Sequence record: PZ386959.1 | Direction: 5' to 3' (one strand) | Source: a phage | DNA length: 64,000 nt | In this document: piece by piece, positions 59,973-60,800 of the stretch | Position numbering within the stretch: position 1 is the first letter of the stretch | Layout of the letters: every line of letters begins with the position of its first letter | The notes under the pieces: model-generated | Seen by the model: only the letters and a program-made list of their open reading frames with translations | Database searches by the model: none | What the model was told of the DNA's origin: nothing | Position numbers and translations under genes: made by a program

Positions 59973-59990
59973 CCAATTTCAATAAAGTTG

Positions 59991-60019
59991 TTGACATTGA
60001 GATGTGACTACTTTATAGT
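59991..60019 (+). promoter_or_regulatory. sigma70-like promoter inside tRNA cluster
   Basis: TTGACA, 17 nt, TATAGT. Confidence 0.55.
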
Positions 60020-60221
60020 AACCTTAGTTTTCGTTGCGTAGCGTCTATTTTGCAAATTTAAAATAAATGCAAACGACAATGTTTTTCTGGCAGTAGCTTG
60101 ATAGGCTAAACACCAGTGAGGTCTTCCAATCCCTCATCAAAGAATTTGGCGTACTCGCCCACGGTATGATTAATAAGGTGGGCATCTTTAAGGGCTTTCT
60201 AAGAGAGTCTTTAAAGATAAT

Positions 60222-60295
60222 GCACCCTTAGTTCAATTGGATAGAGCAACGGTCTTCTAAATCGTTAGTTACAGGTTCGAATCCTGTAGGGTGTA
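60222..60295 (+). tRNA. tRNA-Arg(TCT)
   Basis: Acceptor GCACCCT/AGGGTGT, D-arm TAGTTCAATTGGATAGAGC, loop CTTCTAA. Confidence 0.6.
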
Positions 60296-60440
60296 CCAAA
60301 TAGTTAGCAGATTACTTAGACGGCCTTAGTGGGTCTTCCTGTAGGGAGGTGGTCTGTATCTCATGTTTTCCAGAACATGTAAATAATCTGAGAAGAAGCT
60401 TGACAGTGTTGAGATAACAGGGTAAGCTTCGAATTATAAT

Positions 60441-60520
60441 ATGGGACGATGTTAAGACTCTAAGGCATGAGCAACGGCCTCCAAAACCGTTTCAAAGGGG
60501 TTCAACTCCTCCGTCCCATG
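60441..60520 (+). tRNA. tRNA-Trp(CCA) with atypically long D-region
   Basis: Perfect acceptor ATGGGAC/GTCCCAT, loop CTCCAAA; 80 nt, D-arm could not be folded cleanly. Confidence 0.45.
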
Positions 60521-60536
60521 CCAAAGTCTTATTAGG

Positions 60537-60624
60537 GGTAGGTAGCGGCTAATGGCAGCCAAACAGTCTTGAAAACTGTTGCCACTGTAGAGATACGGTG
60601 AGGGTTCGACTCCTTTACTTACCG
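60537..60624 (+). tRNA. tRNA-Ser(TGA)
   Basis: 88 nt; anticodon stem ACAGT/ACTGT perfect, loop CTTGAAA, long variable arm, T-arm GAGGG-TTCGACT. Confidence 0.6.
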
Positions 60625-60780
60625 CCTAATAAGATTTACTCCGTCCATGCTTGTTCGCATTGTCGGTTTATCCCTCGTGTATTGTCGTACACTGTCAAAG
60701 CACCTAGTAGGTGTCACGGAGAAGAGATAATATCAAGCTCTCCAAAGGTTCTAGTCACCGGATTAAACAAGACTATGCAA

Positions 60781-60800
60781 AGACCTATTTAGGTCTTTTT
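60781..60800 (+). terminator. intrinsic terminator
   Basis: AGACCT-ATTT-AGGTCT followed by TTTTT. Confidence 0.55.

Follow-up and report, generated by a model that had tools for sequence, protein, structure and literature searches.

In the tRNA cluster of a Felixounavirus, the interval between tRNA-Ile and tRNA-Arg (gap A, 60026-60221) appears to encode an RNA related to tmRNA. Conservation, covariation and a pseudoknotted structure strongly support it as a real RNA gene, and we consider it highly probable, at the very least, that its product is a functional RNA derived from tmRNA. That it acts by pairing with host tmRNA is our favored reading; the more specific proposal, that it binds host tmRNA by base pairing, covers the tag template there and may offer a template of its own, is held with slightly less assurance, as somewhat better than an even bet. 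Actual translation of the phage tag frame through a hybrid of phage RNA and host tmRNA is a tentative idea, with the balance tipped against it. Expression of the RNA, its exact ends, its pairing in vivo and all downstream consequences are predicted here from sequence.

The window, by which we mean the whole 64,000-nt stretch of phage DNA that was analyzed (PZ386959.1), is Felixounavirus DNA and matches Escherichia phage dune at 99.8%. An initial annotation had proposed small RNA genes in the non-tRNA gaps of its tRNA cluster, to be checked by structure and covariance analysis across relatives. The tRNA-free interval that it described ahead of tRNA-Arg is real: according to both ARAGORN and Rfam, tRNA-Ile occupies 59900-59975 and tRNA-Arg 60222-60298, so that 246 nt without a tRNA lie between them, and Rfam at the gathering threshold returned tRNAs only. 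The consensus promoter that it placed there is also present. This plus-strand, sigma-70-type promoter (59991-60019) consists of TTGACA at 59991-59996, a 17-nt spacer and TATAGT at 60014-60019, agrees with the consensus at 11 of 12 positions, and corresponds to promoter P45 in the Felix O1 genome paper (PMC3185647). It ranks top among the promoter-like sites of 58000-64000, a region in which such sites as a class are not enriched (15 found vs 13.4 expected). With transcription predicted to start at A60026 or G60027, the promoter would give rise to an RNA of ~160-195 nt, the 3' end of which is probably freed by RNase P cleavage at tRNA-Arg. In three lineages, including the SSU5-type and Erwinia-phage homologues, a promoter sets the start at or beside the near-invariant 5' heptamer of the RNA, GUUUUCG. 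Some relatives have an 89-nt insertion between promoter and GUUUUCG, and many siphophages have no promoter adjacent to the element, so the 5' end of the RNA must come from processing in those phages.

Homologues of the gap A RNA were found in Ounavirinae, Kuttervirus, N4-like phages, ~47-kb siphophages, SSU5-like phage-plasmids and prophages. Matches to 60060-60184 extend over 659 phage records from unrelated families, and the carriers include hundreds of phages of Escherichia, Salmonella, Klebsiella, Shigella, Citrobacter and Erwinia. The element is also present in at least 120 IMG/VR contigs, in prophages of other Enterobacterales and in 258 of 5426 complete E. coli genomes (~5%), where it mostly resides on plasmids of ~110 kb. 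A scan of genome contigs produced mostly chance matches together with four real copies, all in Enterobacterales prophages or phage-plasmids, and none of the four has a tRNA-like domain. In the window, the gap A covariance model finds a single copy (120.5 bits, E = 1.8e-23). The usual neighbors of the element are tRNA genes on the same strand, and what lies immediately upstream varies by lineage, being tRNA-Ile, a protein gene in SSU5 or nothing in P5026. Full-text literature searches and existing annotations yielded no description of the RNA, and the element represents an RNA family missing from annotation, its place being currently left blank or filled with spurious hypothetical proteins.

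Structure and covariance analysis across relatives bears out an RNA gene in 59976-60221. Overall, 87% of cells in the gap A alignment are paired, compared with 29-44% in slid controls, compensatory changes occur at 17 of the 28 pairs, and double-change cells number 211, against 80 +/- 9 in shuffles (0/500). The features, all on the plus strand, follow the order found in tmRNA, where a helix 5 around the stop codon precedes pseudoknots. The helix-5-like stem-loop (60087-60116) has an outer stem CUGG/CCAG and an inner stem UAGCU/GGCUA, holds the stop codon of the tag frame described below, and covaries both in the inner stem and at columns 31/54, where GC is replaced by AU in 19 of 67 sequences. 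It is followed by an H-type pseudoknot resembling PK2 (60117-60149), in which UGAGG (60117-60121) pairs with CCUCA (60132-60136) and the loop CCAA (60126-60129) with UUGG (60146-60149); its helices 3 and 4 are paired in 95.5% and 92.8% of cells, each with compensatory changes at three pairs, and helix 4 was recovered independently by RNAalifold. A second H-type pseudoknot, resembling PK3 (60150-60183), pairs CGUACU (60150-60155) with GGUAUG (60163-60168) and GCCCAC (60157-60162) with GUGGGC (60178-60183). Its loop AUUAAUAA is conserved, its helix 5 is paired in 99.7% of cells with four covarying pairs, and its helix 6 varies in length and sequence yet stays complementary. The stretch 60184-60221, probably the 3' end region of the RNA, folds at minimum free energy into a hairpin, AUCUUUAAGGGCUUUCUAAGAGAGUCUUUAAAGAU, which a short linker connects to the tRNA-Arg RNase P site; the Erwinia phage homologue has a similar hairpin ahead of its next tRNA. 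No PK1 was found upstream of the tag.

The tag template itself (60063-60104, plus strand), which was read from the sequence and which Rfam tmRNA models align with their own tag region at high posterior probability, is a frame without a start codon. It begins with AUAAAU, in which U at -5 and A at -4 are kept, resumes at GCA (60069), runs for ten codons (60069-60098) encoding ANDNVFLAVA, and ends at the consecutive stops TGA TAG (60099-60104). The frame resembles the tmRNA tag ANDENYALAA, and homology with host tmRNA (SsrA, RF00023) is clear around the resume codon (AAAAUAAAUGCAAACGAC vs AAAAAAUAGUCGCAAACGAC); shared features are the ten-codon tag with its AND start and small hydrophobic end, the stop codon in a helix-5-like stem and the H-type pseudoknots that follow. 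All 127 copies retrieved have the ten-codon frame AN(D/E)xxxL(A/M/I)(V/A)A with an in-frame stop, a conservation that is partly circular at codons 1-3, 7 and parts of 8-10, which the retrieval pattern fixed, the stop, the length and codons 4-6 having been left free. The copies comprise 43 distinct nucleotide versions of the frame, use TAA, TAG and TGA, and vary synonymously at third positions (GAC/GAT, TTT/TTC, TAT/TAC, GCT/GCC/GCG). An alternative AUG frame, MQTTMFFWQ*, was rejected: SSU5-type copies lack its AUG, and it is the GCA frame that the substitutions fit. Unlike host tmRNA, the gap A RNA has no acceptor stem, T arm, CCA, H2 helix or PK1, measures ~165-195 nt rather than 363, and possesses an additional 5' arm, which is antisense to tmRNA. 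The search for a tRNA-like domain was negative, so that the RNA could neither be charged nor enter the ribosome on its own; position 3 is U, with which the alanine-identity pair G3:U70 could not form. It scores 12.0-15.7 bits, below the Rfam tmRNA threshold of 47 bits, and other lineages score 10-19 bits on tmRNA-type models.

The 5' arm of the window phage, (A)GUUUUCGUUGCGUAGCGUCUAUUUUGC (60026-60053, plus strand), is antisense to nt 105-77 of host tmRNA and covers codons 5 to 1, the resume codon, the A-rich linker upstream of it and the start of the PK1 3' strand. Across lineages the arm is formed by the 5' 30-50 nt of the RNA (~28 nt in the window phage, 35-50 nt in the others) and the target extends from nt 57, 68 or 77 to nt 105, taking in codons 1-5, the resume codon and the 3' side of PK1. 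In nearly all of 28 representatives, blastn aligned the element with E. coli ssrA in minus-strand orientation, from nt 104 down to 57-82, and the complementarity is both conserved and statistically significant, as expected of an antisense RNA: arm-tmRNA duplexes computed with RNAduplex for the 28 range from -22 to -47 kcal/mol (z -2.7 to -7.2), with -24.9 kcal/mol (z -3.4) for the window phage. For the latter, RNAcofold pairs nt 1-11 with 105-95, 16-18 with 91-89, 20-25 with 87-82 and 26-28 with 79-77. Full-length cofolds place the arm on tmRNA nt 46-86 to 104 in 22 of the 28, and in a truncated cofold the pairs are absent for the L001 representative, a 99.4%-identical relative with the same element. 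Of 127 copies, 126 contain the heptamer GTTTTCG, and an exact internal complement to it exists in only two. The target of the heptamer, CGAAAAC, lies in what we take, from the established structure of tmRNA, to be the single-stranded tag region, and the target stretch is identical in the tmRNAs of E. coli, Salmonella Kentucky and K. pneumoniae, bar one extra A in the Salmonella A-run. A differing Salmonella tag, ANDETYALAA, was not borne out by the serovar Kentucky tmRNA sequence. The predicted accessibility of the target is uncertain because folding programs ignore pseudoknots, SmpB and S1. The net gain from dimerization is small for the window phage, at about -5 kcal/mol, and in the minimum-free-energy fold of the free RNA the arm (nt 7-27) pairs with the RNA's own resume region (nt 34-56). 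Since that region is tmRNA-like, this hairpin means that some complementarity to host tmRNA is expected anyway. A free 5' toehold, predicted for the window phage, is inconsistent in other lineages and was abandoned as a general feature.

How might such an RNA act? It appears to keep only the mRNA-like half of tmRNA, namely the frame-setting bases, the GCA codon, the tag frame, the stop helix and two pseudoknots. In the mechanism that we propose, GUUUUCG would seed on the single-stranded host CGAAAAC (tmRNA nt 98-104), and the arm would zip towards PK1, masking the host resume codon and tag template. Host tagging may then be merely blocked. Alternatively, host tmRNA-SmpB may become a two-piece hybrid in which the phage resume codon emerges beside PK1 and H2 as the template, and stalled ribosomes would be released with a phage-specified tag. 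Ribosome rescue would thereby be reprogrammed in trans, the phage tag (AANDNVFLAVA here, ...LMAA in other lineages) replacing AANDENYALAA and altering the fate of the tagged proteins. This outcome we regard as possible but doubtful, and we know of no mechanism by which the ribosome uses a template merely base-paired to tmRNA. If true, it would be the first example in nature both of template replacement on tmRNA and of a virus rewriting the host degradation tag, and it predicts new C-terminal tags in infected cells; it also suggests a small trans-acting RNA as a simple means to re-tag trans-translation products.

The RNA could instead be a decoy that targets no other RNA, folding on itself and titrating proteins that bind the mRNA-like or pseudoknot part of tmRNA, such as ribosomal protein S1 or RNase R, its complementarity to the host being a by-product of this self-pairing and of its descent from an ssrA fragment that underwent inverted duplication. 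The arm hairpin of the free RNA agrees with this. So does its behavior among relatives, since in Ounavirinae the register of the hairpin changes along with the tag sequence (the window has UUUGCA/UGCAAA, the Erwinia phage AUCAUUU/AAAUGAU) and in siphophage types a local stem covaries by inspection (CUUUG/CAAAG vs UUAUG/CAUAA). The region of the last tag codons and helix 5 is reported to aid RNase R recruitment (PMC4176180). However, the invariant first 7 nt have no conserved internal partner but a perfect one in host tmRNA, and the arm retains GCGAC, which is complementary to host GUCGC (-3 to +2), whereas the RNA's own copy has AAAUGC at this place. In 28 of 28 representatives the arm forms a stronger duplex with host tmRNA than with the RNA's own sense copy, and a pure protein decoy would need neither the preserved stop codon nor codon-like variation; we therefore consider a decoy unlikely. 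Much less probable still is that gap A supplies the coding part of a true tmRNA in two pieces (permuted type), with the acceptor piece elsewhere in the phage or supplied by a neighboring tRNA-like RNA. The best sub-threshold match of the Rfam permuted-tmRNA model, at 29.2 bits, does span tRNA-Ile and gap A, the model scores 20-29 bits in three other lineages, the element usually sits beside tRNA genes of its own strand, and T-arm-like hairpins adjoin it in some siphophage and N4-like relatives. Against this, neither the 64-kb window nor the flanks of homologues contain a relevant partner for the 5' GUUUUCG (CGAAAAC-N-CCA, wobble allowed), so the upstream CCA-ending acceptor piece of permuted tmRNAs (RF04321, RF01849-51) is lacking there. 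The acceptor strand of tRNA-Ile is not complementary to GUUUUCG, and the permuted model falls to 14.8 bits without tRNA-Ile. No G3:U70 pair is possible, the upstream neighbor is not conserved, and ARAGORN calls a tmRNA neither in the window nor in any of 26 homologous loci. Pairing with host tmRNA thus remains our preferred reading for gap A.

The second gap that had been proposed to hold a small RNA gene (gap C, 60630-60800) fared less well, being conserved without a significant fold (z = -1.8). As the initial annotation held, it is not tRNA, none being detectable in 60627-60880. Sequence conservation is strong within Felixounavirus, Suspvirus and Mooglevirus, and no match exists in Rfam, in E. 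coli genomes or outside Ounavirinae. An alignment of seven phages from three genera delimits a plus-strand core, CGUGUAUUGUCGUACA...GACUAUGC (60676-60778), that is almost invariant at every position and lies behind a variable, indel-rich 5' flank (60627-60675); it is a candidate for a discrete RNA, a conserved 3' trailer or a protein- or DNA-binding site alike. The clean terminator assigned to its end exists as a conserved, terminator-like plus-strand hairpin with a U run, AAAGACCU-AUUU-AGGUCUUU (60779-60800), in which changes among relatives keep the pairing via G-U, but its core stem is a modest 5 bp (60782-60786 with 60791-60795, three G-C pairs) before the five-U run (60796-60800), it extends to 8 bp solely through A-U pairs that consume this run, and it is missing from the terminator scan list. 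It is extremely unlikely that the gaps are mere leader, spacer or trailer of tRNA precursors, or small protein genes as some GenBank records have it, with no independent function. Both gaps sit within the tRNA operon and would share its transcript, and several records annotate hypothetical proteins here. Yet gap A is kept, with RNA-type covariation, in unrelated phage families with different flanking genes, and the gap C core shows no variation at any codon position, next to a flank with numerous indels. ORF 60598..60792 is not the only one, as had been stated, for there are others at 60711..60869 on the plus strand and at 60619..60717, 60045..60185 and 60452..60562 on the minus strand; in keeping with the suspicion that it is spurious, all the ORFs of the gaps are short and none has protein-like conservation. 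Could the gap C core (60676-60800) be a Y-RNA-like partner of a phage Ro60/TROVE-fold protein? A 471-aa protein with DUF2828 and DUF7788 is encoded just upstream of the tRNA cluster (56964-58379), its model has a mean pLDDT of 88.6, and its best PDB matches are TROVE/Ro60 structures, including phage Ro60 (E 2e-8 to 6e-7, TM 0.4-0.64). A Y RNA is reportedly usual near bacterial Ro60 genes, and the Ounavirinae genera sampled were the only ones to yield the core. Nevertheless, the Rfam YrlA model (RF02553) has no match in gap C and matches only real tRNAs weakly (17 vs 69 bits), and the gap C fold has neither the long, Ro-binding terminal stem nor the tRNA-like module of a Y RNA or YrlA, making this role improbable.

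Among known systems, two-piece tmRNAs of alpha- and beta-proteobacteria and cyanobacteria come closest to a precedent for a phage RNA-host tmRNA hybrid, in that a separate template RNA is joined to the tRNA-like part by base pairing only. Their two pieces, however, come from one gene and pair via acceptor and H2 helices, whereas the partner proposed for the gap A RNA is a complete host tmRNA, with pairing at PK1 and the tag region. Phages are known to carry genes derived from ssrA. The tmRNAs of mycobacteriophages (Bxz1, Catera and others) and of Bacillus phage G, and the reduced tmRNA of jakobid mitochondria, are complete or keep the tRNA-like half; in the gap A family it is the other half that is retained, with an antisense arm added. 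Mycobacteriophage DS6A maintains a tmRNA consisting only of the tRNA-like domain, possibly as an inhibitor, and a 2014 census recorded no ssrA in enterobacterial phages (PMC4131195). The gap A RNA is also reminiscent of horizontally acquired RNA aimed at host RNA rather than mRNA, but unlike such RNA it would target tmRNA and bears a copy of its target's template. The examples are AgvB and AsxR, anti-sRNAs of Stx prophages that base-pair with host non-coding RNAs as short sponges of Hfq-dependent sRNAs. For gap C, the best analogy is with species 1 and 2 of the T4 tRNA cluster, stable small non-tRNA RNAs that are co-transcribed and processed with the phage tRNAs, although no sequence relationship is known. 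tmRNA-SmpB is the main ribosome-rescue system of bacteria, and several phages, lambda-immP22 hybrids and Mu among them, depend on it. A widespread phage RNA that both resembles tmRNA and is complementary to it would, if confirmed, mean that phages actively manipulate rescue or tagging, and our results suggest that many enterobacterial phages tamper with ribosome rescue. The carriers include therapeutic-type Felixounavirus and Kuttervirus, and the typical position of the element beside phage tRNA genes may mean that it helps to safeguard translation, either in the course of infection or from RNA-cutting defenses.

Two further features of the cluster deserve mention. Directly upstream of tRNA-Leu lies a long imperfect hairpin (60795-60873, plus strand) that matches miRNA-precursor-shaped Rfam models and, by inspection of the alignment, has compensatory changes between genera. 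Between the two gaps already noted is a third, overlooked in the initial annotation (gap B, 60299-60536), which carries a plus-strand tRNA-like gene at 60439-60520 and probably hides a tRNA-Trp(CCA). This gene departs from a regular tRNA in its aberrant, unusually long D region and a C31-A39 mismatch, is not called by ARAGORN, and has only a weak Rfam match (60443-60517, 23 bits on the tRNA-Sec model). It nonetheless has an acceptor stem (AUGGGAC/GUCCCAU), discriminator G, CCA, a T arm and the anticodon loop CUCCAAA. Trp is the sole amino acid missing from the 26 tRNAs that ARAGORN called, and the anticodon stem covaries, AACGG/CCGUU being replaced by GUAAG/CUUAC in Mooglevirus and Suspvirus.

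What occupies the non-tRNA stretch between tRNA-Ile and tRNA-Arg in the tRNA cluster of this Felixounavirus? The cluster (58545-63556) contains 26 tRNA genes by ARAGORN, and tRNAs alone reach the Rfam gathering threshold in the window, with no non-tRNA family among the matches. Both non-tRNA gaps described in the initial annotation are real, the first (gap A, 60026-60221) lying between the end of tRNA-Ile at 59975 and the start of tRNA-Arg at 60222, and the second (gap C, 60627-60880) between the end of tRNA-Ser at 60626 and the start of tRNA-Leu at 60881. Also confirmed is the proposed promoter TTGACA-17-TATAGT at 59991-60019, which matches 11 of 12 consensus positions and is the top promoter-like site of the 6-kb cluster, where such sites as a class are not enriched (15 observed, 13.4 expected); this promoter appears as P45 in the Felix O1 genome paper, which proposes no product (PMC3185647). 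The suggestion that the first gap encodes a small RNA is strongly supported, gap A being conserved far beyond this phage, structured, and covarying across relatives: it is a tmRNA-derived RNA gene without a tRNA-like domain.

Region 59976-60900 is 99.8% identical in Escherichia phage dune and 95-99% identical in many other Felixounavirus genomes. A blastn query of 59985-60221 matched 659 phage records, 254 of which, all Felixounavirus-like phages, cover gap A at full length. The central ~95-125 nt (~60060-60184) are also found by blastn in Kuttervirus (Vi01), Erwinia Kolesnikvirus, the N4-like Schitoviridae FSL SP-058 and IME11, ~47 kb siphophages of Klebsiella, Escherichia and Salmonella, and the phage-plasmid SSU5. 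The SSU5-type copy is carried by 258 of the 5426 complete E. coli genomes, for the most part on ~110 kb plasmids, and 24 of the 25 matches listed there have no annotated feature beneath them. At least 120 further copies were retrieved from IMG/VR with a degenerate pattern, and a scan of a genome collection found real copies in Enterobacterales only. Every homologous locus fetched carries either no annotation or a doubtful small ORF.

The relationship to tmRNA is seen in a tag frame at 60069-60104, GCA AAC GAC AAT GTT TTT CTG GCA GTA GCT TGA TAG, specifying ANDNVFLAVA and two stops, with AAAAUAAAU ahead of it; the E. coli tmRNA counterpart is AAAAAAUAGUC GCA AAC GAC GAA AAC UAC GCU UUA GCA GCU UAA UAA (ANDENYALAA). 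Rfam tmRNA models align the tag stretch at near-maximal posterior probability, and their total scores for the element are 12-29 bits against a 47-bit threshold because the remainder of tmRNA is absent. The start-less 10-codon frame AN(D/E)xxxL(A/M/I)(V/A)A, with an in-frame stop as codon 11, is present in 127 of 127 copies, retrieved by a pattern in which codons 1-3 and 7 and part of codons 8-10 were set beforehand and length, stop codon and codons 4-6 were left free. Among its 43 distinct nucleotide versions TAA, TAG and TGA are all represented, codon 10 is GCT, GCC or GCG, codon 3 is GAC, GAT or GAA, and codon 6 is TTT, TTC, TAT, TAC or GTT (CTT in one copy); upstream, position -4 is always A and position -5 is U in most versions and C in four. 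An overlapping AUG frame was rejected, as it is not conserved.

Downstream of the tag start, a helix-5-like stem surrounds the stop codon (60087-60116), followed by two H-type pseudoknots (60117-60149 and 60150-60183). For the whole predicted RNA, the folding z-score is -4.1. Unaided, RNAalifold recovered three of the six helices. We built a covariance model (R1), which finds exactly one copy in the window (60060-60184, 120.5 bits, E = 1.8e-23), and aligned 100 loci (67 distinct), in an alignment fitted to the nested helices and not to the two pseudoknot helices. On this alignment 87.3% of cells are paired, compared with 29-44% in controls with slid partners; at 17 of the 28 pairs both sides have changed, and double-change cells number 211 against 79.8 +/- 9.3 after shuffling, a value reached in none of 500 shuffles. 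A MAFFT alignment gives an agreeing picture of covariation.

The 5' part of the RNA, an arm starting GUUUUCG, is complementary in sequence to host tmRNA where this carries PK1, the resume codon and the start of the tag. When 28 representatives less than 93% mutually identical were compared with E. coli ssrA, almost all gave two hits: the tag region matched nt 80-127 on the plus strand, and the first 25-45 nt matched from nt 104 down to 57-82 on the minus strand; the siphophage arm GTTTTCGTCACGTTAGCGACTTTGCGGACTTTTTA, for instance, can be set against GTTTTCGTCGTTTGCGACTATTTTTTGCGGCTTTTTA, the reverse complement of ssrA nt 68-104. RNAduplex energies of the 28 5' regions with tmRNA nt 45-125 range from -22 to -47 kcal/mol (z -2.7 to -7.2 against dinucleotide shuffles); in the window phage, RNA nt 1-28 pair with tmRNA nt 105-77 (-24.9 kcal/mol, z -3.4). 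Full-length cofolds, in which the unfolding of both partners is charged, place the arm on tmRNA in 22 of 28 cases, with the paired stretch bounded 5' at nt 46-86 and 3' at nt 104 and a net -5 to -16 kcal/mol. The target stretch is identical in the tmRNAs of E. coli, Klebsiella pneumoniae and Salmonella Kentucky, the last with one additional A in the A-run, which fits an arm common to their phages.

Is the RNA then a tmRNA? ARAGORN calls none in the window or at 26 homologous loci, a complement of the conserved 5' end followed by NCCA is not found in the 64-kb window or the flanks of homologues, a permuted-tmRNA match spanning tRNA-Ile falls to 14.8 bits once tRNA-Ile is removed, and the upstream neighbours of the element vary by lineage. 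By its defining features the gap A RNA is therefore not a tmRNA, either one-piece or two-piece, and the alternative that it is part of a true two-piece tmRNA would call for an acceptor piece still to be found. Another alternative is a decoy for a protein, folded internally. In all 28 representatives the arm forms a stronger duplex with the host than with the RNA's own sense copy. Of the 127 copies, 126 carry GTTTTCG, which complements host CGAAAAC (codons 3-5) exactly, whereas the phages' own codons 4-6 are free to vary and only two copies hold an exact internal complement; the arm also keeps GCGAC, matching by complementarity the GUCGC that spans the host resume codon, a place at which the RNA itself has AAAUGC. 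These two features argue that the partner under selection is host tmRNA and not the RNA itself. The remaining alternative is a functionless spacer, against which stand the conservation of gap A across unrelated phage families and its RNA-type covariation.

We class the RNA, from its sequence, as a half-tmRNA fused to an antisense arm, the half being opposite to those known. A 2014 census placed phage ssrA in mycobacteriophages and Bacillus phage G only (PMC4131195), and the DS6A element keeps only the tRNA-like domain (PMC4131195), whereas the gap A RNA keeps the other half. Felixounavirus genome papers report no tmRNA, and full-text literature searches turned up no account of an RNA of this type. 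The RNA would anneal to host tmRNA and, at a minimum, mask the host resume codon and frame-setting bases and so inhibit tagging; the long duplex could perhaps direct RNase III cleavage. A stronger hypothesis, use as a template, is pointed to by the retained U-5/A-4, the fixed length, the in-frame stop within the helix-5-like stem, the codon-like variation and the hydrophobic, degron-like ending. The arm's 3' end would pair beside PK1 and H2, so that the linker and GCA codon of the phage RNA would come out at about the position of their host equivalents, and host tmRNA-SmpB might resume on the phage template, appending a phage-specified tag. For the window phage, prediction places both the arm and the resume codon of the free RNA out of reach in one hairpin, which host binding would open as a switch, an attractive idea, yet one not consistently predicted in other lineages. 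Should the trans-acting mechanism proposed here be confirmed, it would be of a new kind.

How the 5' end arises appears to differ between lineages. A sigma-70-type promoter puts the start at GUUUUCG or one base earlier in the window phage, SSU5-type elements and the Erwinia phage. VSe102-like relatives have an 89-nt insertion between the -10 box and TAGTTTTCG, a boundary that acts like a module junction, perhaps a processing site, as the insertion falls exactly there; in many siphophages the element lies 3' of a long hairpin ending in GCTCTTTCC(A/GATA). In these cases the 5' end must be made by processing. RNase E recognizes RN|WUU, and AG|UUUU at the 5' end would fit this motif. The insertion in Salmonella virus VSe102 (L310 160-250, against window 60020-60026) contains a perfect extended -10, TGTATAAT. 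Kuttervirus (Salmonella phage Vi01, L002, 470-560) has an extra long hairpin 5' of the element; the hairpin's 5' strand, GAACGAAAAGCTGTTTG, pairs with CAAACAGGTTTTCGTTC, which would sequester the conserved GUUUUCG in the primary transcript. In six siphophage or prophage loci (L065, L068, L069, L076, L085 and L114) the element sits within arrays of long stems, a structured repeat family whose unit, GGTAAGAGCATT, a variable 50-70 nt and AGTGCTCTTTCC(GTTGTGG), is repeated 2-4 times upstream of tRNA genes, with T-arm-like hairpins GGGTTCGAATCCC in some variable inserts.

A further non-tRNA stretch, gap B (60299-60536), contains an unannotated tRNA-like gene on the plus strand at 60439-60520, with a perfect 7-bp acceptor stem (AUGGGAC/GUCCCAU), discriminator G, CCA and a T arm. 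ARAGORN does not call it and its Rfam match is below threshold. Its anticodon stem covaries across genera (AACGG/CCGUU versus GUAAG/CUUAC), the conserved loop is CUCCAAA if closed by a C31-A39 mismatch, giving anticodon CCA, and Trp is the sole amino acid absent among the 26 called tRNAs. It is probably a tRNA-Trp(CCA) with an aberrant, abnormally long D region.

The small RNA proposed for gap C fares less well: its core is strongly conserved, but its fold is not significant (z = -1.8). Seven phages from three Ounavirinae genera vary over the first ~50 nt of the gap and are almost invariant at each position of 60676-60800, in a pattern that is not protein-like. The hairpin described as a clean intrinsic terminator is present and conserved at 60779-60800 but modest, with a 5-bp core, three G-C pairs and five U, and was missed by the terminator scan; ORF 60598..60792 is likewise present, together with others. 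Downstream of the core and this hairpin, a long hairpin (60795-60873) shows compensatory changes. No homologues were found outside Felixounavirus, Suspvirus and Mooglevirus, none in E. coli, and no Rfam family matched. Just upstream of the tRNA cluster, on the plus strand, 56964-58379 encodes a 471-aa protein of Ro60/TROVE-plus-vWA fold (Pfam DUF2828 and DUF7788; PHROG 850 'RNA-binding protein'). Its AF2 model (mean pLDDT 88.6) best matches PDB structures of a TROVE domain, Thermus phage phiLo Ro60, Xenopus Ro and Deinococcus Rsr (E 2e-8 to 6e-7). Ro60 proteins normally have an RNA partner nearby, and this gene offers one lead on gap C; gap C is unlike known Y RNAs, and no Y-RNA partner of this protein was identified.

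The spacer repeat CAGAAGACCnnnTnCAGCAA has four exact copies in the tRNA cluster (58716-58733, 58883-58900, 59297-59314 and 59387-59404), with 0.43 expected over the whole window, and a diverged copy near 61300-61345; in three cases GGTCTGG closes the element ~60 nt downstream, and the repeat may be a processing or promoter signal. Two half-tRNA-like segments abut on the plus strand at 59409-59500: one resembling a tRNA 3' half (T arm GAAGGTTCGATTCCTTC and next ACTCGGC) comes first, and one resembling a 5' half, GTCGAGTTGGTGTAATGGTAGCAC, comes second. As their acceptor strands complement each other, the halves stand in permuted order, perhaps left over from rearrangement of tRNA genes or of stranger origin. 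Just upstream of tRNA genes or ORFs, at 59236-59290, 60184-60218, 60795-60873 and 61620-61640, the cluster repeatedly shows related hairpins or motifs (TTTAGAGGGCT..., CTTTAAAG...), and the Erwinia phage has a similar one 5' of a tRNA; they may serve RNase III cleavage or processing, or regulation specific to the phage.
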